A DNA stretch of 32,000 bases from Cuniculiplasma divulgatum (GTDB lineage Archaea; Thermoplasmatota; Thermoplasmata; Thermoplasmatales; Thermoplasmataceae). The DNA lies in the NCBI RefSeq assembly GCF_900083515.1, contig NZ_LT671858.1, positions 1,500,001-1,532,000 of the forward strand. The letters run 5' to 3'. The notes under the pieces were generated by a model. It did no database searches. It was not told where the DNA came from and saw only the letters and a list, made by a program, of their open reading frames with translations. The position numbers and the translations under genes were made by a program. Of the stretch, positions 7,241 to 31,772 are shown one piece after another (position 1 is the stretch's first letter; each line of letters opens with the position of its first letter).

Positions 7241-7249
7241 TTTAATACC

Positions 7250-8259: not shown

Positions 8260-8261
8260 TT

Positions 8262-10154: not shown

Positions 10155-10157
10155 GAA

Positions 10158-10175
10158 AGCCAATCCACGTTGGCT
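10158..10175. promoter_or_regulatory. Palindromic operator candidate in the divergent promoter of the HTH_10 regulator
   Basis: AGCCAA-TCCACG-TTGGCT is a perfect 6-bp inverted repeat with a 6-bp spacer. It lies between the regulator ATG (10154) and a TATA-like element (10175-10188). Confidence 0.35.
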
Positions 10176-10220
10176 ATAAATATATACCTTATCTATTGAT
10201 ATGAGTATTGGTGATAAAAA

Positions 10221-10481: not shown

Positions 10482-10562
10482 ATTATTAATGAGTAGACGT
10501 AACATTGGGTTTATAAAAACCCTTTACAAAATTTAGATTTTTTGGATTATCCACTATGGTAA

Positions 10563-11114: not shown

Positions 11115-11213
11115 TACAAATATCTAATTCCTATATATAAATTAACAATTTTAATATTATGAAGATAATGAATTTATTTTGTTATTCAAAGAATATTACA
11201 ATAAAATTTATGA

Positions 11214-13995: not shown

Positions 13996-14070
13996 TGCAG
14001 GTGCCGGGATTTGGACCCGGGTTGAAAGCTTGGAAGGCTCTCGTGCTAGACCAGACTACACTACACCTGC
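13996..14070 (-). tRNA. tRNA-Gly (anticodon UCC)
   Basis: The reverse complement folds as a cloverleaf: acceptor GCAGGTG/CACCTGC, D-stem GTGT/GCAC, anticodon stem AGAGC/GCTTT with loop CT-TCC-AA, T-stem CCGGG/CCCGG, discriminator A. No CCA is encoded. Confidence 0.9.
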
Positions 14071-15589: not shown

Positions 15590-15663
15590 GGGTCTGTAGC
15601 TTAGCCAGGTAGAGCGATGGACTCTTAATCCATAGGCCGGGGGTTCGAACCCCCTCAGACCCG
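15590..15663 (+). tRNA. tRNA-Lys (anticodon CUU)
   Basis: Cloverleaf: acceptor GGGTCTG/CAGACCC, D-arm GCTT...AGAGC, anticodon stem ATGGA/TCCAT with loop CT-CTT-AA, T-arm GGGGG-TTCGAAC-CCCCT, discriminator G. No CCA is encoded. Confidence 0.9.
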
Positions 15664-15849
15664 CTAACTACAAATTGCTATTGCCTTATCACTTTAAACG
15701 ATGTTTTATTATGTTTTCAATGACATATTAACTATATGTCATGAATATACGAATTTTTTGACTTGATGTATGCTGAAGGAAACTGTTTCTTAAAACAATC
15801 TAAAATTTCGAATTTTTATTCGCATAATCCTTATATATTTATCAAAGTT

Positions 15850-16737
15850 ATGAAGACTATGAAGGCAGTCCTGACAAAAAAGGAAACTGGAACAGAACAA
15901 ATCAGACTGGATCTTGCTTGGGAGCTATTTTTTCCAGGAATCACAGGAAAACATCCTCACTACAGTGACTTACTTTATCCATTTACAAACTGGTTGTGGA
16001 CAGTTCTTGGAAATCAATCTGGATTTATGAGACAGGAACAAAATGTTACAAAAACATTCAAGATCAATGATATGGAAGAATCTTCACTGGTGTTTCTGAT
16101 ACGAATACTTTCAATGTGGTTTGATGAGGTGATCATAGACAGTGATGATGAATCAAATAAAAATCAATGGACTTTTCCAATAACAAATGTTTATGATGAA
16201 GATCTTGACGAAGCTGAGAAGGCACAGCAGCTCATAGCTGAGAATTACAGTTTTAGAAACCTCATGCCTCTTCTTGGACCGAGCAGGGTTTTTGCGACTG
16301 TTGAGCTACTTGGTCCTGATCAGGTATCAGCCAGGCTGCATTCACATTCAACCATAGATGAATTTTACCTTATACTGGATGGAAGTGCAACATTGAGGAT
16401 GAACGGAAAAGAGAGAGTTGTGAAAAGAGGAGACTTTATCTCGAAACCTGCCGGTCCTGATCTGACAAGTCAGATATTAGCGGATCAGGGAACTTCTGTA
16501 AGGATACTTGACATTGAGGTTCATCCTAATGCAGACCCCAGAACAAAGGAGGTTGTTCATTATCCCGACCATGGTGAAATATTGCTTCATGGTCATGGGT
16601 GGAGTTCAATAATTCCAGATGGTGCATTAATGAATACTAATGAGTTCGATAAAAATTATGAAAAAGGGTATTACAGAAAAAAAGATGGAAGCTGGGAGCC
16701 AAAAGATATTCCTGGATATGAGAGAAGAAAAGACTGA
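15850..16737 (+). CDS. Cupin-domain protein with a ~170-aa N-terminal region of unknown function
   Basis: The C-terminal ARLHSHSTIDEFYLILDGSATLRMNGKERVVKRGDFISKPAG is a cupin_2-type motif pair. The track ORF starts at 15763. The TATA-like TTATATATTTAT at 15831-15842 favours a near-leaderless start at 15850 or 15859. Confidence 0.7.
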   Translation: MKTMKAVLTKKETGTEQIRLDLAWELFFPGITGKHPHYSDLLYPFTNWLWTVLGNQSGFMRQEQNVTKTFKINDMEESSLVFLIRILSMWFDEVIIDSDDESNKNQWTFPITNVYDEDLDEAEKAQQLIAENYSFRNLMPLLGPSRVFATVELLGPDQVSARLHSHSTIDEFYLILDGSATLRMNGKERVVKRGDFISKPAGPDLTSQILADQGTSVRILDIEVHPNADPRTKEVVHYPDHGEILLHGHGWSSIIPDGALMNTNEFDKNYEKGYYRKKDGSWEPKDIPGYERRKD

Positions 16738-16806
16738 TAGAATTTTTCTCATTTGAAGTTAAAGAAACTCACTTTTAATTTTCAAATAATAAAGAACTTT
16801 TATGAA

Positions 16807-17586
16807 TTACATTTCAACAAATTCAATCTCAGTGGTTTCGTCCTCTATTCCCTCTCTTGTTGAATTTAGTCTTGTTTTTATTAAATTTACATAGTCATTG
16901 TTAATCTCTATTCCAATTGAGTTTCTACTGTAAAATTCAGCTACAACAGAAGTTGTTCCAGACCCAAGAAATGGATCCAGAACAGTATCTCCTACAACTG
17001 TTGATGAAAGGATAACTCTTTTGAGCAACTCAAAAGGTTTCTGTGTGGGATGGTTTCCAGCCCATTTTTCACTCTTCGGTGTTACAGGAATAGACCACAT
17101 ATTCCTCATTTGTTTGCCATCGTTTAGTTCTTTCATTTTTTCGTAATTAAATACCCATTTCTTTTTAGAGTGATCCTTCACTGCCCATATTAGATGTTCA
17201 GTACTTTCAGTAAACATTCTTGTTGTGATGTTAGGCTGAGCATTTGGCTTGAACCATACAATACTGTTATTGATTTTCATGTTTAGATGCTGCATGATAA
17301 AACCCAGCTGGTATATGTTGTGAAATGAACCGCAAACCCAGAAGCTTCCACCTGGCTTCAGAACGCGTAGCGATTCACTTATCCAGTTCATATTGAATTC
17401 AAAAAGTTCGTCTCTGGTGAATATGTCCCAAACTTCCTGCATTGTAACGTGGCTGCTGAATGCCCAGCTGAGCCCCTTTGATTTTGACATTCCATACGGA
17501 GGATCAGCAAAAATCATGTCTACTGAATTTTGCTCTATTTTCTTTAGAATTTCCAGACTGTTTCCCAGGTATATTCTATGATTCAT
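16807..17586 (-). CDS. Site-specific DNA methyltransferase, beta-class N6A/N4C family (N6_N4_Mtase type)
   Basis: Motif IV IFADPPYGM lies near the N-terminus and the AdoMet motif I VLDPFLGSGTTSVVA near the C-terminus, with TQKPFELLKRVI between them. This is the beta-class order. DPPY favours N6-adenine. I preferred the ATG at 17586 over the GTG at 17595. Confidence 0.9.
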   Translation of the reverse strand: MNHRIYLGNSLEILKKIEQNSVDMIFADPPYGMSKSKGLSWAFSSHVTMQEVWDIFTRDELFEFNMNWISESLRVLKPGGSFWVCGSFHNIYQLGFIMQHLNMKINNSIVWFKPNAQPNITTRMFTESTEHLIWAVKDHSKKKWVFNYEKMKELNDGKQMRNMWSIPVTPKSEKWAGNHPTQKPFELLKRVILSSTVVGDTVLDPFLGSGTTSVVAEFYSRNSIGIEINNDYVNLIKTRLNSTREGIEDETTEIEFVEM

Positions 17587-17951
17587 CTTTACCACTGTTT
17601 AAATATAGATCATCTCTTATTAGCTATTTTTATATGGACTTTTTTAGGTTCCTAATGTTAGAATGGTTTTAATGATTTGTACACTTGCCCTGCATAAAAA
17701 TGAACAACTAATAACAAATAAATTACTAAAGAATTAATCTCGTAAATATATATCATGAATGAGATCATAACAGATAGCATTACGCTTTAATTTGTGGTAA
17801 AATAATATTTAGTGGCTGAGTAATAATATTTATTTATTGTTCTAAGGCTTTTGTTAATACTTAATATAATCATTATCCATGTAACTTATTCTCGAAGTTC
17901 GAAACAGGCAACGAAATAATTTTCGATGCGTGGTATTATGAACTAATGTTG

Positions 17952-18875
17952 TTAAATAAAATCCCAGACATTTTCAGAATAAGGTATTAGATATTTTACA
18001 ATTACCTCATTTTTTGTTTCCTCTGCTACCTGATATAGAATTTTATAGAACTCGTATATTACATCTGTTGGCAGGAATACCGTAACTTCTATTTTTCCTG
18101 AGAGCAACTTGCCAAAATAGGCGATTCTCATTATATGCTGTTCATTTGCCCTGTTTCTTACAAGAAATGGGAAAGGGCTTCTCAACTGCATCTGGTAAAG
18201 ATGACTTTTGGAATCAATAATCTCGAGGTCATCTACCGGCAGGTCACAGAATACTATGGTGTTAATATCCCCCTTCGCTGCTCCGCTGCTCTTAACCTCA
18301 GCAATTATCCTTGGGCTATCAGGAATTTCCCTTGTGTGTATGTCTTCCCTGTTGATTGGTGTTACATATGTTACGATGGAGAGTGGATAATCTTTGTTTA
18401 TATTATTCATCATCTCCATTATGCCAGGACTTGGACCAAGCCATGTGATTCTTGCATTCTTTGAGTTTGGAGCATAGTTTGATAGCAGTTCCGAAACTTT
18501 TTCTATTTGGCTGCTGTGGAATCTGGCATAAACGTTGAGAAAGCCATCCTTCATGTCTGAACCGTTGATTATCAGGGATGGGATTTCTACAAGCTTATCT
18601 ATTAAAATAAGTTCCTTATCATCACTTATAGTGGAGTCCACAACAAATGACATTTCTCTTTCCGATGCGTTGAATTTATTGAGCAGCAGATTTAGTTTCT
18701 GCATTTTACTGTTCTTTGGAAAGTAGGTGCTTATCCATGTTTGGCCATCCTTGTCATATATAAATACCGGGAGTTTCATTTCCAGATCTGCAGTTGCCTT
18801 GAAAAACTCTGTATCCTGTCTAACCTTGAGCTCAAGATACATATCAAGAGTCCTATCTATCTCCCTTATGTACAT
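17952..18875 (-). CDS. Uncharacterised protein, paralogous family member B1
   Basis: 307-aa ORF. It is collinear with the ORF at 20406-21335 and shares the EIPSLIING, WLGPSPGI and HIMRIAYFGKL anchors with the other five family members. Confidence 0.75.
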   Translation of the reverse strand: MYIREIDRTLDMYLELKVRQDTEFFKATADLEMKLPVFIYDKDGQTWISTYFPKNSKMQKLNLLLNKFNASEREMSFVVDSTISDDKELILIDKLVEIPSLIINGSDMKDGFLNVYARFHSSQIEKVSELLSNYAPNSKNARITWLGPSPGIMEMMNNINKDYPLSIVTYVTPINREDIHTREIPDSPRIIAEVKSSGAAKGDINTIVFCDLPVDDLEIIDSKSHLYQMQLRSPFPFLVRNRANEQHIMRIAYFGKLLSGKIEVTVFLPTDVIYEFYKILYQVAEETKNEVIVKYLIPYSENVWDFI

Positions 18876-19198
18876 ATCACGTTATGCATTACATGGTTTT
18901 AATTCTTTTTGAGCAATTCTATTAAGATCACTTCATTATAATGAAACAGTTTTCCCTTTAACATAAACATTTCTTTAGATTAGAATAATCACATTGCAGA
19001 TTTTCATTATATTATAAAAGGAAATATTATTTGATTGTACTATTTATGTTTCTAATTATATTTAGAAGATTAGTAGAATTTGAGTCAAAAATGATCAAAA
19101 CTCTTATAAAATGAATGTAGGCCTTCATCAAATTTTAAAATAATAAGTAGAAAAAGAAAGACTTTAATGACAATATTTACCATTGCCAGCATCTGCAG

Positions 19199-19207
19199 TT
19201 TTAAAAG
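19199..19207 (+). promoter_or_regulatory. TATA box candidate for paralogue A1
   Basis: TTTTAAAAG is centred ~30-38 nt upstream of the TTG (19235) and ATG (19241) starts, implying a very short leader. Confidence 0.35.
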
Positions 19208-19240
19208 ACATATTATACTAGTAATGAATGCAATTTGTAT

Positions 19241-20176
19241 ATGGGAAAGGGCACACAGTTTAAGGAACTTGACCTTCTTGACTGGAAACTTCATATTTCG
19301 TTCTCTCCCGAATCAGCCATAACGAGGGCTTCCAGAAAGCTCAAGATAAACTCTGAAGTTGGGTTGTATTTTGATGGACAAAACACAGAAATAAACCTAT
19401 TTTTTCAAAACAGAAGGGAAATGGAAAGAGATTTAAATATATTCTTGCGTGAATCTGACGGCTTTCTAGAAAATGAAATATGGAGAGTAAGAAGAAGTAT
19501 TGTGAAGAGATTTGAATATGTTGAACTAATAAAATCACTTCTGGAAATTCCATCATTTGTTTTGATTTCAATATGGATCAGGGATGGGATTTTTCATACA
19601 CAGTTTATCTTCAACAGTTCACAGTCAAATAAGGCCTCTGATATAATACTCGGAAAACTTAGTACCATTGAGGAGGGAAAGCTGGAATATGTGGGTCCTA
19701 ATAATGGCTTTGCTGGAATTTTGGACGAGATAGACCAGCGCTGTGAACTTTCAATTGCACAGTTTGAACTCCTTCCACCCAAAAAAGAGATGGAAATGCC
19801 AGAAAATCCAATGGGTGATCACTGGTATAGAATTCTAAAGAAGCCATATGGTACTGACCCCATAAGAGGGGTGTATATTATGTCAGAAAAACCATCTAAG
19901 GCAGAGGTTATGACTGAAGTTATAAAAGACAGTGTTTACGAAGCAACAACCGACAATGCGTTCCTGTCGTATTTCGTTTCTGAGATGCATGTGAAGAGAA
20001 TTCCAACCATAGCAGCATTCCAAAAACTCGACAAACCCGTGTTCAATTTATGGATCGTTTTTCCCTCACTGTTCAGAAATGAAATACTTAAAATAGCATC
20101 CGATGCCAGGGAAGACCTTCCAAACTGGCATCCTTCACTCAAATCTCTGGCCTCTTTTAAGGAGATTTTTAATTAA
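19241..20176 (+). CDS. Uncharacterised protein, paralogous family member A1
   Basis: The track ORF starts at TTG 19235, and the first ATG is at 19241. LDWKLHISFSPES...EINLFF, EIPSFVLIS, EYVGPNNGF, NPMGDHWYRILKKPYG and KRIPTIAAFQKL align with A2-A4. The TATA-like TTTTAAAAG at 19199-19207 is correctly spaced. Confidence 0.75.
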   Translation: MGKGTQFKELDLLDWKLHISFSPESAITRASRKLKINSEVGLYFDGQNTEINLFFQNRREMERDLNIFLRESDGFLENEIWRVRRSIVKRFEYVELIKSLLEIPSFVLISIWIRDGIFHTQFIFNSSQSNKASDIILGKLSTIEEGKLEYVGPNNGFAGILDEIDQRCELSIAQFELLPPKKEMEMPENPMGDHWYRILKKPYGTDPIRGVYIMSEKPSKAEVMTEVIKDSVYEATTDNAFLSYFVSEMHVKRIPTIAAFQKLDKPVFNLWIVFPSLFRNEILKIASDAREDLPNWHPSLKSLASFKEIFN

Positions 20177-20405
20177 TTTAGTCATCATTTTTGAGTGATT
20201 GGCACACAAACGTACCATATTATAAGTCATTAAATACCTTAATAGTAATTCATCTCTGCATTTTCTCCTATTGTAGCCTAATTTGCATTTACAAACCTTT
20301 TGCCTTTATGAGTGACTTTTGCATCATATATTTATCATTTACTGGAGAATTATTCATAACCTATAAAATAGTAACTATTTAATACTATTGAGGAAATAGG
20401 ATCAC

Positions 20406-21335
20406 ATGCACTTCGCTGACATTGACAAAATTTTGGATCGAAGAATGGTCCTGACAATGAAACAGGATAATGAGATTTTTCTGGCATCCAGGGAAATCGA
20501 GGCAAGGATTCCCATAAATATTCTTGAGGAAGGGGATAAAAAATATATGCTTATAAATTTTCCGAGTTCTTTCGGTGAGGTACAGAAGAACAGAATTTTC
20601 TTGAAGAAATATGATGCAAAAAATATTGGTTCACATTATGTCATAAGGGAGAGAATCAATCACGTTGAAAAATGGAAATATATTCAGGAGATTATGAATT
20701 TACCATCAGTGGTTGTTAACAGGATAAATCTGAAGGGAGGTCTCATAGCTTTCTATTTCAGGTATCACCATTCTGTAAAGAATAAAATTTCTAACATTCT
20801 CTCAAATTATACAGATGGAGATGATGGGCAGATAGAAACAATGGATCCATCACCTGGAATATTGAAAATTCTTGACAGACTTGATCAGTTTTATTCTCTC
20901 GGAATGGTTCAGGTTTCCATTCCTCTTACTGAAGAAGAAAGAACTTTAGTAGGATTTGTAAGAGACGATTTCATAGGAGAAAGTACTAATAATTTAATTT
21001 CTGGGAATGGCATTAATGCCATTGTCTATACGGGTGAAACTGTTGAGAATCCACAGTTAAATGAAATCTATGGAGAATCTGGGCTATATGGAATGAACTT
21101 AAAAGATAACACTCTTCAGGGATGGAGAGAAAAATTGAACAGGATACCGGTAATAAGGTTCAGACAATTCTTACGAATTCGAAATAATGATCTACACATA
21201 CTTACACTTCTTCCATATTCACAAACAGACCTTGCCTACAGGGCATTCTTTGAAGAGATATGTGAAAGTAACAGGCATAATGCAACCCTGGATTTCGTGT
21301 CTAAATATGATAGAAGCGTAATATTGGATTTCTGA
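20406..21335 (+). CDS. Uncharacterised protein, paralogous family member B2
   Basis: 309-aa ORF. Its N-terminus MHFADIDKILDRRMVLTMKQDNEIF matches MYIREIDRTLDMYLELKVRQDTEFF of B1. The anchors NLPSVVVNR, MDPSPGI and NRIPVIRFRQFL are present. AGGAT lies 5 nt upstream of the ATG. Confidence 0.75.
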   Translation: MHFADIDKILDRRMVLTMKQDNEIFLASREIEARIPINILEEGDKKYMLINFPSSFGEVQKNRIFLKKYDAKNIGSHYVIRERINHVEKWKYIQEIMNLPSVVVNRINLKGGLIAFYFRYHHSVKNKISNILSNYTDGDDGQIETMDPSPGILKILDRLDQFYSLGMVQVSIPLTEEERTLVGFVRDDFIGESTNNLISGNGINAIVYTGETVENPQLNEIYGESGLYGMNLKDNTLQGWREKLNRIPVIRFRQFLRIRNNDLHILTLLPYSQTDLAYRAFFEEICESNRHNATLDFVSKYDRSVILDF

Positions 21336-21337
21336 TA

Positions 21338-21378
21338 TTTTTTAAATTCCATAGAATTAATGAAATATTCTTTTTTTT
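21338..21378 (+). terminator. Oligo-T tracts (T6 at 21338-21343, T8 at 21371-21378) downstream of B2
   Basis: Archaeal termination commonly uses oligo-T on the coding strand. Both tracts lie between the B2 stop (21335) and the M20 start (21423). Confidence 0.35.
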
Positions 21379-21422
21379 AAATAGGATTAAAATATTTCTT
21401 ATTCATTCATTAACTGATTGTG

Positions 21423-22598
21423 ATGAATGTTGATGAAGCCTTAGATAAATTATTTCCAGATGTAATTGATTTGTCTAAAAAAATTTATAGTTATGCTGAG
21501 CTTGGAAGTGACGAGATAAAATCTTCCAGGGTATTATCTGAGTATCTGGAGAAAAGAGGATTCAGGGTAGAGAGAAATTACAGGGATATGAAAACAGCTT
21601 TCAGGGCTGACAATGGGCATAAAGGATTGAGGGTAGGACTTCTTGCAGAGTATGATGCACTTCCTAATGGCCATTCATGTGGGCATAATCTTATTTCCGC
21701 ATGGGCGGCAGGAACCGCTGTCGTACTAAATCTTCTTGGAGAGAATATAAATATAAAAGTTTATGGAACACCCTCTGAGGAGGCCATTGGTCCATATGCG
21801 GGAAGTAAATGTTTGCTTGCAGATATGGGATCATTCAAAGATACGGATTTTGTACTGGGCGTACATCCTGATGATAGATGGGCTGTCGGATCAAAGGCTC
21901 TGGCGGATATTACACTGGAACTTAGATTCCATGGAAAATCTGCCCATGGAGCTGACTCACCTGAAAAAGGCATAAATGCACTGGATGCTGCTGTTGCAAC
22001 TTACAATGTAATAAATAGCTTAAGGGGTTGGGCAAAGCTTGACAAACACCTTGTTGTTGGAATGATATTCACAGAATCTGGAAGGGCGACAAATGTAATT
22101 CCAGAAAGGGCAACCTTGCAGGTGGAAATGAGATCAACTTCAACTGAATTCCTTGGTAAATTCGAGAATAAGGTAAGAGATGCGGCCATGGGAGTAGCCT
22201 CAGCCTATGGTGCTGATATTACAATAGAGCAAATCACCCCACTTTATAAGACATACATAAACAATAGGACATTAAATTCACTGCTAAAGGAAAATCTTGC
22301 AAAAATGAATATTAATGCTGAAGATGCGGGTTCTGAAGAGGGATTTGCTTCTGGTAGTACAGACGAGGCAAATGTAAGCTGGGTTGTTCCCACGGGTCAT
22401 CTTGATTTTCCTATAGGATATCCGGGAATCCCGGGTCATTCCGATGAGTTCAGGGAAGCAGCAAATCCAGATAAGGTTGAAAATGTTTTAAGGAATGCCA
22501 TAAAGGCAACTGCATTAACGATCCTTCAGATAGCCAAAGAAAACAAAATCCGACAAATAAAGGATGAATTTGAGAATAGTGATGGCAATGGACAGTGA
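21423..22598 (+). CDS. M20-family metallo-amidohydrolase (AbgB/amidohydrolase-like)
   Basis: ~391 aa with LLAEYDALPNGHSCGHNLIS (metal-ligand region), FHGKSAHGA and GSTDEANVS, typical of M20 peptidase/amidohydrolases. The ATG at 21423 directly follows the GTG at 21420. Confidence 0.85.
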   Translation: MNVDEALDKLFPDVIDLSKKIYSYAELGSDEIKSSRVLSEYLEKRGFRVERNYRDMKTAFRADNGHKGLRVGLLAEYDALPNGHSCGHNLISAWAAGTAVVLNLLGENINIKVYGTPSEEAIGPYAGSKCLLADMGSFKDTDFVLGVHPDDRWAVGSKALADITLELRFHGKSAHGADSPEKGINALDAAVATYNVINSLRGWAKLDKHLVVGMIFTESGRATNVIPERATLQVEMRSTSTEFLGKFENKVRDAAMGVASAYGADITIEQITPLYKTYINNRTLNSLLKENLAKMNINAEDAGSEEGFASGSTDEANVSWVVPTGHLDFPIGYPGIPGHSDEFREAANPDKVENVLRNAIKATALTILQIAKENKIRQIKDEFENSDGNGQ

Positions 22599-23541
22599 AT
22601 TCAGCGAGGCAGTAGAAATAATAGCTCCACCACATCTTTCTCCAGGTGATGATATAAGGGTAATAGCACCGGCCAGTGCTCCTGATATGAAAAATCTATC
22701 CAAGACCATTGCAAGACTCTCCAAACTTGGATACAGAGTATCTCTGGGAAGAAACATAAGAAGGCTCGTTCAGAGAAATTCTCTTGCTGCACCCATGAGA
22801 GAAAGAGCACAGGAGATAATGGAGGCTTTTCAGGATGACTCAGTAAAGGCAATTGTATGTGCAAGAGGAGGTTACGGTTCAATTCACGTTCTACCATTTC
22901 TCGATTATGATCTCATAAAAAGTCATCCCAAGATCTTTATGGGATACAGCGATATTACTGCTCTTCACATGGCATTTAACAAGCTTTCTGGGCTAATCAC
23001 CTTTCATGGTCCAATGGCTGCTTCTGATCCGGATGAATTCCATAAGTCATCATTCAAATTGCTTGTGGATATACTGAATGGACAGTCGAGCGATATTTCC
23101 GGATTCGTGGAGAATGTTGTTAAATATATCCACAAGGGAAAGGTTGTTGGAAGATCAATTGGCACGAACATATCTGTTGCAATATCTCTAATAGGCACTC
23201 CATATATGCCCTCAACTGCAGGCAGAATACTTTTTGCAGAGGATACTGCAATTACTTCTGGTGATCTCGACAGGTATTTTTCAGTACTGAACCTAACAGG
23301 ATACCTGCAGGAATTTGCAGGTTTTGCCTTCGGGGAATTCAAGCAGATAAATAGCAACGAGGAGCCAATGCCGTATATCGAAGATATTATCCAGCAATAC
23401 ATGGATCAGCTGAAAAAACCTTCTATTTATGGGCTTCCTTTTGGCCATGGGGAGGACCAGATGCTTATTCCACTAAACGCAAAAATGTCCATTTCTTCAG
23501 AGACCCCTTATGTGACCCTTGAGCAGGACATAGTGAATTAG
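22564..23541 (+). CDS. S66-family LD-carboxypeptidase (LdcA/MccF-like)
   Basis: Contains IRVIAPAS, ARGGYGS, MGYSDITALH (Ser nucleophile context), FAEDT and PFGHG (His). The first ATG (22564) overlaps the M20 gene by 35 nt. In-frame ATGs at 22582 and 22588 also overlap it. Confidence 0.85.
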   Translation: MNLRIVMAMDSEFSEAVEIIAPPHLSPGDDIRVIAPASAPDMKNLSKTIARLSKLGYRVSLGRNIRRLVQRNSLAAPMRERAQEIMEAFQDDSVKAIVCARGGYGSIHVLPFLDYDLIKSHPKIFMGYSDITALHMAFNKLSGLITFHGPMAASDPDEFHKSSFKLLVDILNGQSSDISGFVENVVKYIHKGKVVGRSIGTNISVAISLIGTPYMPSTAGRILFAEDTAITSGDLDRYFSVLNLTGYLQEFAGFAFGEFKQINSNEEPMPYIEDIIQQYMDQLKKPSIYGLPFGHGEDQMLIPLNAKMSISSETPYVTLEQDIVN

Positions 23542-23625
23542 CAACAATATAGCATTAAACCATTCATTAAAATAAAGTATTACCAAATATGTAAGCGCCC
23601 AAATTTAAATTAATCTACACCATTA

Positions 23626-24072
23626 ATGGTTATGTCCCTCAGGAATTCGGATAATTTCTATGCTATTATGTTTACAGTAACATCATTTATTTACCTTATA
23701 ACTGGAACGATCCTTCTATCAACAGGATTTGTATGGGATTTTCCCACATCTCATAGGGACCCTGTGTTTATTCTACTATTTTTTGGATTTGCAGTAATGA
23801 TAGTATTTGGAATGTCGTATATTTTGATTCCAAACCTAATGAATTTTAAAGTTAGACAGACAATGACCAAAATTCAATACTTTATTTACAACATAGGATT
23901 GATAATATCATTCCTTTCTATGGAATTAAGTCTTAACAATTTCAAAAGTTATTTTATTTCAACTCTATTAGTTCTTGGACTGATTCTTTTAATTATTTCT
24001 ATTGCCATTCATGTCTGGAACATATCAGGAGTTAAACACTCTACCATTGGATCTGGAAGAGAATCTCCTTAA
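23626..24072 (+). CDS. Hypothetical integral membrane protein (about 4 TM helices)
   Basis: 148-aa ORF, strongly hydrophobic with four ~20-aa segments. I recognise no family. Confidence 0.6.
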   Translation: MVMSLRNSDNFYAIMFTVTSFIYLITGTILLSTGFVWDFPTSHRDPVFILLFFGFAVMIVFGMSYILIPNLMNFKVRQTMTKIQYFIYNIGLIISFLSMELSLNNFKSYFISTLLVLGLILLIISIAIHVWNISGVKHSTIGSGRESP

Positions 24073-24187
24073 GGCAATATTACATATAATCACGTTTCTT
24101 CCAATAATTTCTATCAGGTAATACGTCCATGATACAGTAATTCGCAAATCATATCTTATACGGTATCATGGGTTGTGAGTGATACTA

Positions 24188-24379
24188 TTAATTCCTGTAA
24201 TCCTCAACTTCCTCCAGTGATCTGTTCACAAGATCTGTTATAGAAGTTGAGTCCTGCATTTCATGGAATCTCTGGGCATGTGCTCTTGCGTGTTCTTCTG
24301 CCTCTTCCCTTGTCTTTGCAATAACCTCGTAATCGCATTCTTTTCCCGTTGACCTGCATCTAAATCTAAATCTTGACAT
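24188..24379 (-). CDS. DUF1059-like small protein
   Basis: 63 aa. FRCRSTGKECDYEVIAKTREEAEEHARAHAQRFHEM matches the DUF1059 pattern (xFxCxDxGxxCxFE...eE....HaxxxHxM). Confidence 0.7.
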   Translation of the reverse strand: MSRFRFRCRSTGKECDYEVIAKTREEAEEHARAHAQRFHEMQDSTSITDLVNRSLEEVEDYRN

Positions 24380-24522
24380 TGTTTACTGTAAACCTAACTA
24401 TGTTAAAAATTTTGTTATAACATAATTAATATATTTAGGTTGATTCGCTCATTCATTGTGAGATTATGTTGAATTTCTGAATCACTTCATAAGTGTTAAA
24501 TTCCTTGAAATCAATCACATCC

Positions 24523-26034
24523 ATGGAAGATGGGATAATTGAGATAGATGGATTCAATTTAAATCTTGAAAAATACCAGGATATTGTTTTGAATAAGAAA
24601 AGGGTTGGAATTTCAGATAAAGCACGAACGAATATCCAAAAATCAAGAGTTTCCCTGGAGAAACTAATTGCATCCGGAAAAAACATTTATGGGGTTAACA
24701 CGGGATTTGGAAGCCTGCTGAACAGGAAGATCAGGCCTGAGGAGGAGAGACAGCTACAGGTTAACCTAATAAGAAGCCATTCAGCCGGATTTGGAAAACC
24801 ACTAAGTGAAGAAAAGGTAAGGGGTATAATGCTGGTAAGGGCAAACAGTCTCTGCAGGGGACAATCAGGATGCACAGTGGAACTTGTCCAGAAAATTATG
24901 GATTTTCTTAACTCTGGAATATGTCCCTATGTTCCTGAATTTGGATCTGTTGGTTCAAGTGGAGATCTTGCACCATTATCCCACATAATGCTAGCAATGA
25001 TGGGCGAAGGTGAGATTTTGGATAATGGAATAAGAAAGAATGCATCCACTGTACTAAAGGAGAAACACATCAAGCCCTATGAACTCAGAGAAAAGGAGGC
25101 ACTTGCTTTTAACAATGGAACTGCTGCAATCACAGGAATTGGTATGTTAGAACTGATCAGGGCTAAGAATAATCTTGCCCTTGCAACTGGATCTGCCATT
25201 CTTTCAATGGAAGCCTTAGGTGCAACCAGAAAGGCATTCACACCATGGGTACTGAAGGCAAGAGATCAGCCCGGACAGGCAAAAATAGGAAATGCACTGT
25301 ATACAAGACTTGGTGGAAGTGCCAGTATCGAAGAGGGCGACAGAAGCAGGATTCAGGATGCATACACCATCAGGTGCACGCCACAGGTTTTCGGAGCTGT
25401 TCTTGATACCATAAATTATGTTGAATCAGTGCTTGTAAGAGAGATGAATTCAACCACAGATAATCCGTTGATTAATGATGAAGAATACATTTCTGCCGGA
25501 AATTTTCATGGTGAACCTGTTGCCCTTGTTTGTGATTTTCTGGCAATTGCACTTACTGATCTTGGTAACATGATAGAGAGAAGGATCGCCAGAATTACAG
25601 ATGAGAATCTCAGTGGCCTGGATGCTTTCCTTGTAAGGAATAGTGGCCTTAATTCTGGTTTCATGATTGCACAGTACACAGCAGCAGCGTTATGCAACAG
25701 GAACAAGATTCTTGTATATCCAGGATCTGCAGATACCATACCTACATGTGCAAATCAGGAGGATCATGTTAGCATGGGTGCAAACTCAGCAAACAAGCTT
25801 TCCGAAATTAATGACAACCTTAACAGGATTATATCTACTGAATATGTGCTAGCCATACAGGGAATGGATCTAAAGAACAGTAAATACTCAGAATTTTCAG
25901 AAAGAATCAGAAGAGAAACAAGAAAATATATATCTTTTCTGGAACAGGACCGTCCGATCTACAGGGATATGGATAGAATGCAGGAGGTCATGAATGGGTT
26001 TGAAATGGATATATACAGAGATATATTTTACTGA
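24523..26034 (+). CDS. hutH: Histidine ammonia-lyase
   Basis: Contains YGVNTGFGSL, NLIRSHSAG (the Ser-His pair typical of HAL) and the MIO-loop region GSVGSSGDLAPLSH. NQEDHVSMG is also present. The track ORF begins at GTG 24493, and the first ATG is at 24523 (MEDGIIEIDG). Confidence 0.9.
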   Translation: MEDGIIEIDGFNLNLEKYQDIVLNKKRVGISDKARTNIQKSRVSLEKLIASGKNIYGVNTGFGSLLNRKIRPEEERQLQVNLIRSHSAGFGKPLSEEKVRGIMLVRANSLCRGQSGCTVELVQKIMDFLNSGICPYVPEFGSVGSSGDLAPLSHIMLAMMGEGEILDNGIRKNASTVLKEKHIKPYELREKEALAFNNGTAAITGIGMLELIRAKNNLALATGSAILSMEALGATRKAFTPWVLKARDQPGQAKIGNALYTRLGGSASIEEGDRSRIQDAYTIRCTPQVFGAVLDTINYVESVLVREMNSTTDNPLINDEEYISAGNFHGEPVALVCDFLAIALTDLGNMIERRIARITDENLSGLDAFLVRNSGLNSGFMIAQYTAAALCNRNKILVYPGSADTIPTCANQEDHVSMGANSANKLSEINDNLNRIISTEYVLAIQGMDLKNSKYSEFSERIRRETRKYISFLEQDRPIYRDMDRMQEVMNGFEMDIYRDIFY

Positions 26035-26047
26035 ACCCTGAAGATAA

Positions 26048-26578
26048 TCAGCCCATCAATGAACCACATGAGGGACAAAATTTTGCATTCTCATCCACAA
26101 GCGCCTGACACTGCCTGCATCTGACCTTTATAATTTCATTCTTAACCTCAGTATTCTCCGGTATGGACTGCTGGTTTGGTGTAATATTCTGCATGACAAC
26201 ACCAGGCTGCTGTTGCGTTCCCGTCTGATTATATGTCAGATTTCCAGATTTGGCAGATGCGATTTGATTTATCCACAATTGCGGTTCCTTCACCCTGAAG
26301 CTGTACTGGGTTCCATCAGCATTGATCCTGAATTCGTGCCCCTTGAATATTATATCCTTCTTCCTGTCTGCCACGAGTACAGAACTTAGAGGTATGTTGA
26401 TTAAAATAATATCATGCTTGTCCTTTACAAAAACCATTCTCCTGCTCTCTCTTGTTGTTTCAAGAACGATTCGCTTGTTTGTCAGAATCAAATTGCCCCT
26501 CTCTCTGCCATTACCAGTTTCAACACCATGTTCTGTTAGCAGTACTGCTTCTCCAGCGTCAAATAACATATGCTTCAT
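26048..26578 (-). CDS. PH/GRAM-like domain protein with a C-terminal zinc ribbon
   Basis: 176-aa ORF. GNLILTNKRIVLE...FRVKEPQLWINQI resembles bacterial PH/GRAM-like domains. The C-terminus VRCRQCQALVDENAKFCPSCGSLM is a CxxC...CxxC zinc ribbon. The domain call is by eye only. Confidence 0.65.
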   Translation of the reverse strand: MKHMLFDAGEAVLLTEHGVETGNGRERGNLILTNKRIVLETTRESRRMVFVKDKHDIILINIPLSSVLVADRKKDIIFKGHEFRINADGTQYSFRVKEPQLWINQIASAKSGNLTYNQTGTQQQPGVVMQNITPNQQSIPENTEVKNEIIKVRCRQCQALVDENAKFCPSCGSLMG

Positions 26579-26632
26579 TATGATAACTTGATTACATATT
26601 TAAGGATTAAATACAGTCAGCAATTATTTTCC

Positions 26633-27604
26633 TTAGAAATCTACTTCTTGAAGTATACTGCTTGAATTAAGCCATTCCTGAATGGGCTGTACTCTTCGTA
26701 TTACTGGGTTTAGACCCATTTCCATCAAACCAGTTTCCCTCAAAATACCAAGCAGTTCCAGGGTAAATATTGATGGATGAATAATGAAGTACCTCATTAC
26801 CCCATTATCAAGGGACTGCATTTTCAAAAGGACAGGTATCCGCTCCTTTCTGATTTTATTATTAATTTCTGTAAATATAGGATTATGAATCTCTACTTCG
26901 TAGAGTCTTCCCTTAATTATTTCATTCAATCTACTGCCTACTTTTTGTCCGTCTCGGATAATATAAACTGCTGAAACAGTTCTGGATTCATAGGGTGACT
27001 TTATAATTCTAAACCAGCTGTTTCCCAGGGCATCAATTCGATCTGCAAACTTTGTTTGGTCTAAGGTAAAATCATATTCGATCACAGAAACATTAGATCT
27101 GTTGCTCAGATCTTCAAGTGACTTTTTCATGCCTCCACTTGGTCCGAGATATTCAATAGCCACATCCGAAGTTTGATCCATATTTTTCAGTAGAATAGAC
27201 GATATTTTTTCAAGCCTATTTTTGGAGAATATTATTTCTACCTTGAAAATTCCCTTATCTATCCATGCAGATGACAGTACGGCTGACTGTGCCCCAACAA
27301 GACCCTGCATCAGTTTCCTAAAATCTTTTGAAACTTCCATCTCTCTTGAAATTCGCCATATGCCATTCTTATTTACAGCATTCATGCTATTGAGAAAAAT
27401 GAATAATTCGCGATTCATATTCAAATCATCCGGAAAGAATATGCTTATCTCTGTTTTTTCTCCATCAACGTAAATTCCCATTTCTGATGTTATGGAGTAT
27501 TTCCTTGCACCATTGGTAAGTTCTGTTTCAGGTGAGAATGAAAGCCTAAGTTTCCAGTCAAGAAGAGAATTGTCAGACAATATGATCTGGTTTAGATTTA
27601 TCAA
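26633..27604 (-). CDS. Uncharacterised protein, paralogous family member A2
   Basis: 323-aa ORF with a TTG start and no nearby in-frame ATG. LDWKLRLSFSPETE, EISIFF, IEYLGPSGGM, SWFRIIKSPY and ERIPVLLKMQSL align with A1, A3 and A4. Confidence 0.7.
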   Translation of the reverse strand: MINLNQIILSDNSLLDWKLRLSFSPETELTNGARKYSITSEMGIYVDGEKTEISIFFPDDLNMNRELFIFLNSMNAVNKNGIWRISREMEVSKDFRKLMQGLVGAQSAVLSSAWIDKGIFKVEIIFSKNRLEKISSILLKNMDQTSDVAIEYLGPSGGMKKSLEDLSNRSNVSVIEYDFTLDQTKFADRIDALGNSWFRIIKSPYESRTVSAVYIIRDGQKVGSRLNEIIKGRLYEVEIHNPIFTEINNKIRKERIPVLLKMQSLDNGVMRYFIIHPSIFTLELLGILRETGLMEMGLNPVIRRVQPIQEWLNSSSILQEVDF

Positions 27605-27715
27605 ATACTTAAATTTAGTTATTATATCCTTTTATGATCCTGCCATAATAGGTTTCAATTAACAATTTGACCTGATGCTTCATTTTTCATTTCGCATTAA
27701 AAATTATCTTCAGTA

Positions 27716-28666
27716 TCATTCTCTGTCCAGCCATTCCTTCAGTGTTTCTATTCTTTCCAGATCAATTTTCCAATCTGTAAATTTCTTTTCTGTGTCGGAT
27801 ATTAGCCGTAAAATTTCTTCTGTAAATACAGTTGGTGCGATAATGAAAGTCTTTAAAACCGAGTCCTCAAACATCTGAACTCTACTGAGTGTTACGATAT
27901 TTCTTCTTATTATTTCGTCGTTTATTGCATTTACCACTTCATTTTTGGTTTTCCCGTAATAAACACCGTCATCTATCTTAATTATTCTCGGATTCTTAAA
28001 CTCATAACCATCAGTGAGATATACAGCATCTATGGATTTTGTCCCGAGAGGCATCTTTAAAATCCTCAACCAACTCTCGTTAAGCAGATTGTCAGTTAAC
28101 TGTTTTTCGCTGGATTCAGTCTTAAGTGTCATTTGAATTACACTCAATGGATTTCTGTTATCTACGATATTTAATATTCTCTCGTATCCCTCACTGGGAC
28201 CGAGATATTCTATATTTAATTTCCACTGTTCACCCTTGAATCCAATAATAGCTTTGGATACGGAATCCATATTCCTATAGGAGAAAAGGAATTCAGTAAA
28301 GTATCTACCCTTGTCTATCCATACTGATGAAAGGACGCATGAAGGTATGTTGATTAATTCCCATACTGTATCTATATAATCTATTGATTTTGTTACTTTC
28401 CTGTGTATTCTCCATATACCGTTTTCCAGGATTCCTCCTGATTTTGATATAAATATTGCAAGATCTCTTTCCGTGCTGGATTCAGCCGGGAAATACAGAT
28501 TGATCTCAGCCTCATTTCCTTCAAGATGGAATCCAATTTCTGATTTTATATCGAATTTCCTGGAAGCTTTGGACACCTCTGTTTCGGGTTCTATGGAAGC
28601 GATCAACTTCCAGTTTAGACCGTCCAGTTTTTTTAATATCCGGTGCCCATATCCCCCTTCTTCCAT
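27716..28666 (-). CDS. Uncharacterised protein, paralogous family member A3
   Basis: 316-aa ORF. It contains LNWKLIASIEPETE, EINLYF, NIPSCVLSS, IEYLGPSEGY and SWLRILKMPLG. GGAG lies ~10 nt upstream of the ATG. Confidence 0.75.
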   Translation of the reverse strand: MEEGGYGHRILKKLDGLNWKLIASIEPETEVSKASRKFDIKSEIGFHLEGNEAEINLYFPAESSTERDLAIFISKSGGILENGIWRIHRKVTKSIDYIDTVWELINIPSCVLSSVWIDKGRYFTEFLFSYRNMDSVSKAIIGFKGEQWKLNIEYLGPSEGYERILNIVDNRNPLSVIQMTLKTESSEKQLTDNLLNESWLRILKMPLGTKSIDAVYLTDGYEFKNPRIIKIDDGVYYGKTKNEVVNAINDEIIRRNIVTLSRVQMFEDSVLKTFIIAPTVFTEEILRLISDTEKKFTDWKIDLERIETLKEWLDRE

Positions 28667-28791
28667 TTAATTTCTCCAGATTAATAAATAAATTTAATTA
28701 AATTCTATTATACAAATGTTGTCTATTTATAAAAAATATTTGGTACAAAATGTTGTATGTATGGATAAGATTTTAACATATTTTTAACAGT

Positions 28792-29751
28792 TTACGTAAA
28801 TTTTGATGGCAGAATTTTTTCTCTATAAATCCATTCTCCTATATTCTGTACCCTGAATATTTTTAAGTTCCATTTATCAAATGATGTTGCTACCTGTCTA
28901 GCTACATGTATGTATTCACCTGCGAAAATATCAGGAACTGCGGTAATAACATAGAATTTTCTTCCCTTCAGTATATTGACCCTTGATATACATGGTATTC
29001 TATTTTCACTCATCAAACTGTCCATGCCCCTTATGAAGTTGTTCTCTGTTGCGGCATAATAGATCTTTCCTGGAACTATCTCCTTAACATCTTCTCTCTG
29101 GGGTTTCTCATTGGTGAAATAGATACCGTTTATATTTCCCCTGCCAATTGGTGTTTTTTCTATTCTAACCCATTCAGTTCCCATTGGATTTCTTTCCATC
29201 TTAAGTTCTTCTTCTGGTGGATCAGTTTCTATACCTATGAGTGTTAATTTTGTCCTATCTGTTATTCTTCTTATGGACTCTCTGAATCCACCACTAGGGC
29301 CAAGATATTCAACCTTGACATCTGATTTTTCCATGAGTTCTTGCAAGATCACCTTTGATACATCGTCTATTTGAGAATCATGAAATAAGAATTCCATTCT
29401 ATACTGGCCCTTAGAAATACTGAATGAGGACAGCACAACTGATGGTATAACGAGCAATTTTCTAGCCGTTTCGGTTAATTGGAAATTCTTTCTTGCAATA
29501 CTTCTTACCCTGTATATATTGTTCATTTCCATTGCCTTTGACTCATTTAGGAATATTACCATTTCCCTCTGCATCTCTTCGGTTTTCTTTACAAAGAGGT
29601 TAATTTCTGTTATCTCATCCTCGAATATGAAGCCAAGCTCTGACTCTATGCCAAACTTCTCGGTTTTTTCTGCCGTACCACCCTTTGGTTTAGAGGAAAG
29701 ACAGAGTTTCCAGTTCAAAGCATCCAGTTGTTCCACATTTTTCAACTCCAT
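28792..29751 (-). CDS. Uncharacterised protein, paralogous family member A4
   Basis: 319-aa ORF with LNWKLCLSSKP, EINLFV, VIPSVVLSS, VEYLGPSGGF, NPMGTEWVRIEKTPIG and NRIPCISRVNIL. Confidence 0.75.
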   Translation of the reverse strand: MELKNVEQLDALNWKLCLSSKPKGGTAEKTEKFGIESELGFIFEDEITEINLFVKKTEEMQREMVIFLNESKAMEMNNIYRVRSIARKNFQLTETARKLLVIPSVVLSSFSISKGQYRMEFLFHDSQIDDVSKVILQELMEKSDVKVEYLGPSGGFRESIRRITDRTKLTLIGIETDPPEEELKMERNPMGTEWVRIEKTPIGRGNINGIYFTNEKPQREDVKEIVPGKIYYAATENNFIRGMDSLMSENRIPCISRVNILKGRKFYVITAVPDIFAGEYIHVARQVATSFDKWNLKIFRVQNIGEWIYREKILPSKFT

Positions 29752-29943
29752 TATTCATTTACATGCAATTTACCGGATAGAACCCATGATAAATGCATAT
29801 GCCGTTAAACTCATAAACTGTCAACATATATAATATATTCTCCTTATAATTGAGTTGGACTACAAGTGAAATAATTCCTACATAATAAATGGATTCCTGC
29901 GTCAGCTAACCGATTGTTTGGAAGAGACAACCTTACTTTAAGA

Positions 29944-29954
29944 ATATTTAAATA
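29944..29954 (+). promoter_or_regulatory. TATA box candidate for the DUF929-like gene
   Basis: ATATTTAAATA is centred ~27 nt upstream of the ATG at 29977, consistent with a leaderless mRNA. Confidence 0.4.
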
Positions 29955-29967
29955 CAGCAATACGAAT

Positions 29968-30744
29968 ATGCTATGCATGCATTTCACAAAGAAGGAAATA
30001 TATGGAGTTATTTCCATTGTGGTGGTCATTATTGTTGTGGTATCAGGTATTGCAATTTATTCAAATTTAACAAAAAATACTGCTCCTGTTCCGCTATCGA
30101 AGTATGTAAAAATTTCAAACAATGACCTACTAAGTAATGGACAGAATCACATATATTTCATATCATGGTATGGGTGTCCCATAGGAGCTGATAATTCTTG
30201 GGTTCTCTACAGTTTCCTTAATTCAACGAGAGATGTGGCACCGGATGTTGTCCTGCATAAATCAATATCTGGAACACCAGCCCTTTTATTCCTTAATGGA
30301 ACACATAAGCTTGGTGAAAATATAAGCTTCAACTACGCAGGAGTGCCTTTTGGATTCACTTCGCTGTACATGTATAATGAAACCATGACTGGAGGTGTAT
30401 ATAATAACGCGATATCCAGCAGTTCAAGGGTGAGTTATGCACTTAGCGTTCTTAAAGGAAATCTCCCGGAGAGCGTATATCAGGTTGCAGATAAATATGA
30501 AACACAGGTCAGGATTCAGAATCAAACCGGATCATGGTCTTCATCGACAGGCCACCTTGTTACAATACTAATAGTGACTGGACCTGACGGCACATTCGTT
30601 CACTTCTGGTTCATGTATCCATCATTTTCCAGTAAAGTATCACCACAAACAGTATTCAAAAATCTATCCACATACCCACAGATAAGCAACGCTGAGGGAC
30701 AGTTCCTGAATGCACTTGGAGGATCCAATGTTGCATGTGCCTGA
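29968..30744 (+). CDS. Membrane-anchored extracytoplasmic protein, DUF929-like (degenerate thioredoxin-like motif)
   Basis: An N-terminal TM anchor (VISIVVVIIVVVSGIAIY) is followed by YFISWYGCPIGADNSWVLYSFLNS. This resembles the DUF929 Y.GA.WCP.CAA.RW.L core but keeps only one Cys. There are seven N-x-S/T sequons. The TATA-like ATATTTAAATA at 29944-29954 suits a leaderless ATG at 29977, and 29968 is also possible. Confidence 0.6.
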   Translation: MLCMHFTKKEIYGVISIVVVIIVVVSGIAIYSNLTKNTAPVPLSKYVKISNNDLLSNGQNHIYFISWYGCPIGADNSWVLYSFLNSTRDVAPDVVLHKSISGTPALLFLNGTHKLGENISFNYAGVPFGFTSLYMYNETMTGGVYNNAISSSSRVSYALSVLKGNLPESVYQVADKYETQVRIQNQTGSWSSSTGHLVTILIVTGPDGTFVHFWFMYPSFSSKVSPQTVFKNLSTYPQISNAEGQFLNALGGSNVACA

Positions 30745-30833: not shown

Positions 30834-31772
30834 TTATGGAATAATCTTCTTTTCCTTAACCTTCGCTTCATCTGATATCTTCAGTGATTTTGCCTCGACA
30901 TAATCAATATTACACCCTGCTTCAATAATTATGTCATCGCCCTTAACATATTTCGAATTTGTTGATTCAAGAAAAGCCCTGTTACAGATTATTTCATCTA
31001 TTTTTGCCTCTCCGGAAAGGAATCTTTTCTTCTGCAATCTTATTTCAACGATGTCAGATTGAAGCTTTACAACATGGCTTGTAGAATTGTATATCTTCAT
31101 TTCAAATCGCCTTGAACTAATGGAATCCGCATTTATCCTTCCGGAGATGTATATCTCATCCCCGGTTACAGTTCGAACTTCAACTAATCCGGAAGATTTT
31201 AACATAGTGCATTCGATTGATTCTGCCTTTGTCTTTCCGGAATTTTCAATATTCTTTGCCCTTAGCAATTTAGAAATCTTTGCTGAACCAGAACTTTCAA
31301 ACTCATCACATATGACTGATTCTGCACTGATTGAACCTGAAGACTCAAGTTCACATGCTTCCATATTACCTGCAATTTGAAGAGATCCAGAGGATTCAAT
31401 TTTATTTCCCCTTACGTTTCCTCCTATATGCATAGAACCAGAGGAATGAATTGTATCTGATGAAATAACATCCTTTTCCACCCTGCAGCTTCCTGAAACA
31501 TGAAAGAAGATCGAATCAATGCTACCATCAACGGTAAGAGAACCTGAAACTGAGGTCTCTTCTGCATACACCGATTGTATCATACCTGAACCAGATATCC
31601 TGATCTTTTTTGATCTCTCTGTCTTTGATTCTTCCTGTGCTTTTTCATCACGTCTTTCCTCCTTTTCAGATCCATTTTCCTCCCATCTTGACATGATCTC
31701 ATTAAACATGTCTTCACTCATCTTTCCGCCTGCAACCATTTCCCGAAGTTTTTTCTTTCTGTCTTCGTCCAT
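30834..31772 (-). CDS. Bactofilin-like (polymer-forming, DUF583-type) beta-helix repeat protein
   Basis: 312-aa ORF. Eight or nine consecutive 16-18-aa windings each start with S-(S/G)-G-S, for example SSGSMHIGGNVRGNKIE, SSGSLQIAGNMEACELE, SSGSISAESVICDEFE and SSGSAKISKLLRAKNIE. A charged helical N-terminus precedes them. Confidence 0.65.
   Translation of the reverse strand: MDEDRKKKLREMVAGGKMSEDMFNEIMSRWEENGSEKEERRDEKAQEESKTERSKKIRISGSGMIQSVYAEETSVSGSLTVDGSIDSIFFHVSGSCRVEKDVISSDTIHSSGSMHIGGNVRGNKIESSGSLQIAGNMEACELESSGSISAESVICDEFESSGSAKISKLLRAKNIENSGKTKAESIECTMLKSSGLVEVRTVTGDEIYISGRINADSISSRRFEMKIYNSTSHVVKLQSDIVEIRLQKKRFLSGEAKIDEIICNRAFLESTNSKYVKGDDIIIEAGCNIDYVEAKSLKISDEAKVKEKKIIP

Follow-up and report, generated by a model that had tools for sequence, protein, structure and literature searches.

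Six diverged genes lie within 12 kb of one another in a stretch of 32,000 nucleotides of Cuniculiplasma divulgatum DNA (contig NZ_LT671858.1, positions 1,500,001 to 1,532,000; hereafter the window), and they raise the question of what their products are and why so many related copies sit side by side. A sequence-only reading of the window had taken them for paralogues of an uncharacterised family bearing no named family signature, which implied that the family might be new. Our analysis corrects this part of the reading: the locus is a real paralogue cluster of an already named and structurally solved family, the Ta1207 family (Pfam PF19020), and is not a new family. We regard it as very nearly certain that the six are functional paralogous genes of this family, which is small, is restricted to Thermoplasmatota and consists of soluble proteins with a mass of about 36 kDa. 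The six genes, named after the two clades into which they fall, are:

17952..18875, minus strand: B1, 307 amino acids (aa), B clade; full-length PF19020 match, expectation value (E) 1.1e-65; the most conserved of the six
19235..20176, plus strand: A1, 313 aa from TTG 19235, A clade; PF19020 E 1.3e-54; probable true start ATG 19241 (311 aa)
20406..21335, plus strand: B2, 309 aa, B clade; PF19020 E 1.1e-52
26633..27604, minus strand: A2, 323 aa, A clade; PF19020 E 1.8e-56; the fastest-evolving copy
27716..28666, minus strand: A3, 316 aa, A clade; PF19020 E 6.5e-53
28792..29751, minus strand: A4, 319 aa, A clade; PF19020 E 6.3e-51

Identification of the Ta1207-family cluster

All six proteins match PF19020 over its full length, with scores of 173.5-221.9 bits against a gathering cut-off of 26.3 (E 6e-51 to 1e-65); of the 277 model positions, the matches start within 1-16 and finish within 266-277. 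NCBIfam holds no model for the six proteins. When a profile of the six was compared with the PDB, its sole match was Ta1207 of Thermoplasma acidophilum (5m86_A, E 1e-11), and a profile of 120 family members matched the same chain with E 4.2e-26 over residues 4-324, with nothing else below E 0.08. Predicted structures lead to the same protein. The AlphaFold2 model of A1 (predicted local distance difference test, pLDDT, 93.7; predicted template modelling score, pTM, 0.91) aligns with 5m86_A in Foldseek at E 3.3e-21 and a query-normalised template modelling score (TM-score) of 0.80, and that of B1 (pLDDT 92.4, pTM 0.90) at E 6e-17 and a TM-score of 0.74; 5m86_A is the only significant PDB match of either model, the next best having a TM-score of at most 0.31. 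Sequence profiles and predicted fold together establish Ta1207-family membership for both subfamilies.

The PDB entry 5M86 is a crystal structure, released in 2017, of the 333-aa Ta1207, with 10 identical chains in the entry. Ta1207 is like the six proteins in profile, in predicted fold over the whole chain (TM-score 0.74-0.80), in size (333 against 307-323 aa) and in phylum, but it is only 13-23% identical to them in sequence (20-23% to the A copies). It sides with the A clade, scoring 111 bits with an A-clade hidden Markov model (HMM) against 31 bits with a B-clade HMM, and an HMM of B sequences only is significant on the N-terminal half of Ta1207 alone, the B clade being far removed. The window holds six clustered copies, and the function of the founding member is itself not annotated. 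The sequence-only reading had held that a profile or structure match to a characterised family would remove the novelty of the six genes. A named family is indeed matched, but one with no assigned function: neither Pfam nor NCBIfam annotates a function for it, nor does the literature searched, in which we found no relevant paper on Ta1207, 5M86 or PF19020. The word "uncharacterised" accordingly still holds for function and no longer for sequence and structure. A 2017 paper on the Ta1207 structure is reported to describe a pentamer and to assign it no function.

The relationship among the six stands independently of the family name. Their coordinates, strands and lengths agree exactly with the list of open reading frames (ORFs), a MAFFT alignment is collinear from end to end, and the three sequence anchors quoted in the earlier reading occupy common alignment columns in all six. 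In BLASTP comparisons the A copies are 28-36% identical to one another over about 300 aa (E 1e-41 to 1e-64), B1 and B2 are 25% identical over 311 aa (E 2e-30), and A and B copies share 20-25% identity (E 4e-10 to 6e-4); the sequence homology among the six ORFs is far beyond chance. Average-linkage clustering of 120 family sequences separates two deep clades, A1-A4 falling together in the first and both B copies in the second, so that alignment, BLASTP and clustering all back the proposal of six diverged paralogues in two subfamilies. The family HMM, searched against every ORF of 40 aa or more in the six frames of the window, returns exactly these six and no seventh copy, from which it follows that the window contains no fragments or pseudogenes of the family. 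No conserved 7-10-mer is present in an alignment of the six or of 14 family sequences.

For A1, translation most likely starts at ATG 19241 (311 aa) rather than at TTG 19235, because a 99% identical protein (P0001) is 311 aa long and because public gene calls for the same species, and the sequence itself, agree with this start. The intergenic gaps among the window paralogues measure 111-359 bp, and one pair, B1-A1, is divergently transcribed.

Predicted fold and conserved residues

In the secondary structure that DSSP assigns to the A1 and B1 models, a helix-strand-strand-helix-strand unit occurs three times in a row, and a further beta-rich segment lies between units two and three; the models thus depict a compact single chain of three consecutive ferredoxin-like alpha/beta modules. 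Comparison of the three modules with hhalign gives weak scores (probability 8-20%, E about 1e-3), with every alignment in a topologically equivalent register; this suggests an ancient internal triplication without establishing it. The six proteins are predicted to be soluble (largest 19-residue Kyte-Doolittle mean below 1.6), contain 0-2 cysteines each and have isoelectric points of 5.1-7.7. A Pfam scan and the hydropathy profiles agree with the earlier observation that they have no transmembrane helix, signal peptide, Walker A motif or helix-turn-helix (HTH).

Among the 120 members no alignment column is invariant or even 90% conserved. The best-conserved positions, in A1 numbering, are L15-D16, P106-S107, G118, F124-R125-F126-H127, S135, Y152-L-G154-x-S156-x-G158, W197, Y235 and P277, and the Y152-G158 motif falls at a strand-to-helix junction in the A1 model. 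The polar residues S107, R125, H127, S135, S156 and E200 are conserved in 60-82% of members; in the A copies of the window the R-F-H motif is replaced by I/L-F-N/S/H.

Beyond 5M86, Foldseek returns only local likenesses of low TM-score to other ferredoxin-like sandwiches: the lid domains of M20 peptidases, ACT-repeat proteins (2NYI, aspartokinase, CASTOR2 and SerB2), tandem BMC-T shell proteins and LAGLIDADG enzymes. The tandem ACT proteins (CASTOR1/2 and the GcvR-like 2NYI) are of similar size and consist solely of a chain of repeated ferredoxin-like modules, and a Gly-rich strand-to-helix loop, the best-conserved motif of the Ta1207 family, may be counted as a further likeness. They have, however, two or four canonical units, as against the three modules and inserted beta-rich segment of the Ta1207 family, and ACT or RAM membership of the six is not supported: no Pfam profile match was found at E of 1 or below, TM-scores stay below 0.3 and Foldseek probabilities below 0.6. 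Tandem BMC-T shell proteins (CsoS1D and the Haliangium BMC-T, 6NER) likewise have repeated alpha/beta modules and form cyclic oligomers, and match B1 locally with probabilities of up to 0.82. An identity as bacterial microcompartment (BMC) shell proteins was set aside: the six have no BMC match in Pfam, TM-scores do not exceed 0.31, and the examined loci carry ribosomal and metabolic genes as neighbours and no microcompartment genes. The lid (dimerisation) domain of M20 peptidases, as in Sapep/DapE (3KHX), is a ferredoxin-like sandwich that gives the highest Foldseek probability outside the family (0.75-0.89), and an M20 gene lies downstream of B2. This assignment too was discarded, as the six have no match to PF07687 and no catalytic domain, the TM-score is about 0.2, and the adjacency to M20 genes is confined to one lineage.

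Selection and history of the paralogues

In the sister species L009 all six genes are present in unchanged order, and the ratio of nonsynonymous to synonymous substitution rates (dN/dS) was computed for these one-to-one orthologues by the Nei-Gojobori method. As dS lies between 1.2 and 1.9, near saturation, the ratios are approximate, though still clearly far below 1:

B1: 91.5% identity to the L009 orthologue, dN/dS 0.03
A1: 86.5% identity, dN/dS 0.045
B2: 83.5% identity, dN/dS 0.05
A4: 82.8% identity, dN/dS 0.064; 68% identity to the L010 orthologue
A3: 75.0% identity, dN/dS 0.106; no orthologue in L010
A2: 68.5% identity, dN/dS 0.164; 44% identity to the L010 orthologue, dN/dS 0.31

All six copies are under purifying selection. 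The earlier argument from intact reading frames to maintained function is therefore upheld by ratios of 0.03-0.16 throughout. Genes neighbouring the cluster (TIM, cupin, methyltransferase, M20, S66, HutH and DUF929) have dN/dS values of 0.026-0.128 and 79-95% identity between the same two species. By this comparison B1, A1, B2 and A4 evolve like normal metabolic genes, while A2 and A3 evolve faster yet remain constrained.

More distant relatives illuminate the history of the cluster, in a comparison of contexts that rests on about ten distinct loci. In L005 and L010, which share about 68% protein identity with the window, the syntenic locus holds four copies, the orthologues of B1, A1, A2 (44% identical) and A4, with no remnant of B2 or A3. 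An orthologue of B2, 58.6% identical, is found as a lone copy in another context in L013 and likewise in L014 and L015, where it adjoins a HEPN/nucleotidyltransferase pair resembling a toxin-antitoxin system, a gene with an ABM domain and a PadR regulator (L013 8499-10930). As B2 is gone from the L005/L010 locus and yet has an orthologue in the L013 lineage, it was either moved or differentially lost. Elsewhere, L011 has three B-clade copies on the same strand, 29-32% identical and separated by 1 and 56 bp, and L017 has two copies 7 kb apart amid genes for PCNA, EF-2 and EF-1alpha. The divergent B1-A1 pair is kept in all three related species. The gene content of the relatives and the B2 orthologue elsewhere point to ancient paralogues kept together, with differential loss or relocation, and not to a recent burst of duplication. 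The earlier impression that the copies are old is borne out by identities of 20-36%, by the two deep clades and by the presence of the B2 orthologue in a different lineage; judged from the sequences, the A/B split long predates the present lineage.

The B1-A1 intergenic region contains two conserved blocks, between which its centre is variable across three species:

18895..18929, minus strand: A/T-rich block, conserved in the three-species alignment, that precedes the B1 start by about 20-55 nt; putative B1 promoter, resembling a TATA box and B recognition element (BRE)
19196..19229, plus strand: block (..TTGTAAAAGACATATTATACTAGTAATGAAT..) that precedes the A1 start codon, ATG 19241, by 12-45 nt and is nearly invariant in the window, L009 and L010; putative A1 promoter

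These blocks are consistent with separate promoters for B1 and A1.

Distribution of the family and a natural fusion

An exhaustive HMMER search of 1.84 billion representatives clustered at 50% identity recovered 296 clusters of the family at E of 1e-3 or below and 238 at 1e-10 or below. Nearly all representatives are 295-325 aa long, and 119 of 158 collected family proteins measure 300-319 aa. Every named member is a hypothetical protein from a metagenome-assembled genome (MAG) labelled "Candidatus Thermoplasmatota archaeon". The relatives of the window are MAGs of Thermoplasmatales or Thermoplasmata, in keeping with the Thermoplasmata origin suggested before, and in the paralogue region the window is identical to contigs from MAGs assigned to Thermoplasmatales, for example GCA_027366995.1.

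Outside the window, the P0029 cluster (for example MCL5667927.1) comprises 22 near-identical sequences of a 654-aa protein in which two Ta1207 domains are naturally fused. Pfam marks two stretches in this protein, an A-clade Ta1207 domain and a second, very divergent one, and the family HMM matches the second half with E 5.6e-7. Independent assemblies from NCBI, JGI, ENA and Logan all contain the fusion, so that it is not an assembly artefact, and it may serve as a "Rosetta stone" for interaction between paralogues.

Genomic context

The two groups of paralogues are separated by a conserved block at 21420-26578:

21420-22598: M20-type peptidase, 84 bp downstream of B2 on the same strand, overlapping the S66 gene by 35 nt
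22564-23541: S66 LD-carboxypeptidase
between the S66 and DUF1059 genes: small membrane protein of 148 aa
24188-24379, minus strand: DUF1059 ORF of 63 aa
24493-26034: histidine/aromatic ammonia-lyase (HutH-type)
26048-26578, minus strand: protein with a C-terminal zinc ribbon

The presence of an LD-carboxypeptidase is curious, since the archaeon presumably has no wall. Upstream of the cluster the window contains:

1-9290, minus strand: ribosomal-protein operon (among its genes L3 8262-9290, L4 7504-8259, L2 6545-7240, S3 4978-5640, S4e 2222-2935)
13996-14070, minus strand: tRNA-Gly(TCC), by ARAGORN and Rfam
15590-15664, plus strand: tRNA-Lys(CTT), by ARAGORN and Rfam
within 15763-17595: cupin and stand-alone N4/N6 DNA methyltransferase (the latter 16807-17595, minus strand), lying between TIM and B1 both here and in L009

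With the core housekeeping genes of the ribosomal-protein operon about 9 kb away, the cluster occupies a stable chromosomal region. Rfam matches nothing in the window apart from the two tRNAs. At the syntenic site of the 68%-identity relative (L005 7599-9645) the cupin and the orphan methyltransferase are missing and TIM is followed directly by the B1 orthologue, which marks an insertion or deletion. The 324-aa ORF at 15763-16737 is probably over-extended, as public gene calls give 202 aa and a separate ORF of 89 aa. Between the ribosomal operon and the first tRNA, at 9462-13878 on the minus strand, lie an HTH_10/HVO_A0563-type regulator, an isochorismatase-family hydrolase, an Fe-S/CCG protein and a flavin adenine dinucleotide (FAD)-linked oxidase; the genes of the last two overlap by 8 nt and form a pair like glycolate oxidase or D-lactate dehydrogenase. 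On the far side of the cluster, a DUF929 membrane-anchored protein (29914-30744, plus strand) adjoins a 312-aa protein (30834-31772, minus strand) with many repeats that contain "SSGS" and a weak match to the FapA beta-solenoid (E 3.5e-5, below the gathering score), and both are kept beside the A4 orthologue in L005.

Across lineages, at the loci compared, no gene from outside the family is a conserved neighbour, and the only recurrent neighbour is another Ta1207-family gene. In the window (84-bp gap), in L005 (60 bp), in L019 and in L020, a family gene directly precedes a same-strand M20 gene, whereas this adjacency is absent in L011, L013-L015 and L017. As the neighbours vary between lineages, a functional link to HutH, M20, S66 or the DNA methyltransferase was rejected as a general explanation of the family.

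What the paralogues may do

Taking identity and mechanism jointly, we give our overall best explanation of the locus a probability of roughly 0.45. We propose that Ta1207-family proteins are non-catalytic, that they would assemble into oligomers as Ta1207 does, and that the middle module would recognise either a small ligand or a protein partner through its best-conserved surface (PS...G...F-R-F-H...S...Y-L-G-x-S-x-G and then W-x-R-E); the paralogues would supply different specificities, and they may act together physically. Taken alone, this functional proposal of an oligomeric binding or scaffold protein with diverged specificities is tentative, and is a good deal short of an even bet. A non-catalytic role is suggested by the lack of any 90%-conserved column in the 120 members and by the failure of the proteins to match any enzyme family in Pfam or NCBIfam, and an oligomer by the 10 identical chains of the 5M86 entry. 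Joint action is suggested by how often the paralogues stand in tandem and by the fusion in one lineage; the number of copies per locus (six in the window and L009, four in L005/L010, three in L011, two in L017) counts in the same direction. Several observations weigh against the proposal. The six genes of the window are coupled only loosely, with gaps between them, one divergent pair and an A/T-rich block that seems to precede each gene, so that co-expression is not required, and lone copies in L013-L015 mean that hetero-assembly cannot be obligatory. The polar residues conserved in 60-82% of members could equally mark an enzyme with differing subfamilies, and support for an internal triplication is weak in statistical terms (hhalign probability 8-20%). 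Moreover, the functional part is something that we infer, the oligomer, ligand and partner of the six proteins being predictions.

A more specific form of the proposal, in which subunits of the A and B clades co-assemble into mixed or paired rings, as paralogues of the proteasome or of Lsm proteins do, would fit the B1-A1 pair of three species, the tandem set of L011 and the 22-sequence fusion, yet we consider it improbable as it stands. About equally doubtful is the idea that the proteins are small-molecule sensors of the ACT/RAM type, their three modules working like the tandem ACT domains of stand-alone sensors (CASTOR or GcvR-like proteins, for instance), with each paralogue binding a different amino acid or other metabolite at the strand-Gly-x-Ser-x-Gly-helix loop and relaying the signal to a partner. 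ACT domains bind their ligand at that kind of strand-to-helix position, which is where the best-conserved motif (Y-L-G-x-S-x-G) of the family lies; ACT-repeat proteins recur in the weak Foldseek matches of both models (2nyi, 3l76, 2re1, CASTOR2 9kpg and SerB2 5it4/5jjb), and in this lineage the cluster is interleaved with genes for amino-acid and peptide catabolism (HutH-type ammonia-lyase, M20, S66). These matches, however, have probabilities of 0.2-0.6 and, as noted above, low TM-scores and no ACT or RAM counterpart in Pfam; the amino-acid gene neighbourhood is not kept in other lineages, and no output domain or conserved partner gene was seen. Rather less likely still is an enzyme, possibly of peptide or amino-acid breakdown, with active sites that differ between subfamilies, which would account for there being no invariant residue. 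The position of a family gene directly upstream of M20 in four genomes (the window, L005, L019 and L020), the rank of the M20 peptidases Sapep/DapE as the local Foldseek matches of highest probability after 5m86 (0.75-0.89), and the conservation of S107, R125, H127, S135 and S156 in 62-82% of members all speak for it. The four genomes are close and generally syntenic, however, the M20 matches most likely reflect a generic ferredoxin-like sandwich (TM-score about 0.2), no residue reaches 90% conservation, the R-F-H motif is replaced in the A copies of the window, and with 0-2 cysteines per copy there is no cofactor or metal motif.

Two further readings were weighed. A diversifying family associated with defence or mobile elements would account for the lineage-specific tandem expansions, with 6, 4, 3, 2 or 1 copies per locus, for the stand-alone N4/N6 DNA methyltransferase adjoining B1, for the HEPN/nucleotidyltransferase pair near the B2 orthologue in L013-L015 and for the faster evolution of A2 and A3. 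We judge it very unlikely nonetheless. Membership of a known anti-phage defence or phage family was rejected, as PADLOC and PHROGs gave noise-level matches only (AbiLi for A2, E 0.013 and 13.1 bits; phrog_27338 for B1, E 0.086). The Big Fantastic Virus Database (BFVD) contains no structural match at E of 0.001 or below, and tblastn against 72,556 plasmids and 50,697 phage records gave no match; the content of guanine plus cytosine is like that of the rest of the window, the locus is syntenic beside the ribosomal-protein operon across species with about 68% protein identity, and dN/dS is as low as in housekeeping neighbours. That the ORFs are decaying or unexpressed relics of duplication might be suggested by the divergence of A2 from its orthologues (68.5% and 44% identity), but is effectively refuted: the six frames are intact in both the window and L009 with dN/dS of 0.03-0.16 at dS above 1, the promoter-like upstream blocks are conserved, and identical proteins recur on numerous independent contigs, with B1 listed for 72 blocks of the collection. 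Set beside these readings, the non-catalytic, oligomeric binding or scaffold protein remains the one that we prefer.

Implications for the family

The locus opens no new class of system, and its main gain is the correction of "no named family" to PF19020 and 5M86. The Ta1207 family is an orphan family confined to Thermoplasmatota, with a structure solved since 2017, and our data add that up to six ancient paralogues are kept together under purifying selection, that tandem expansions occurred independently and that two copies were fused in one lineage. Co-assembly of paralogues and ligand binding at the G-x-S-x-G loop thereby become testable hypotheses for a structurally solved protein. If the mixed rings were real, they would constitute a lineage-specific and combinatorially variable cytoplasmic scaffold or sensor in the wall-less, acidophilic Thermoplasmatales.

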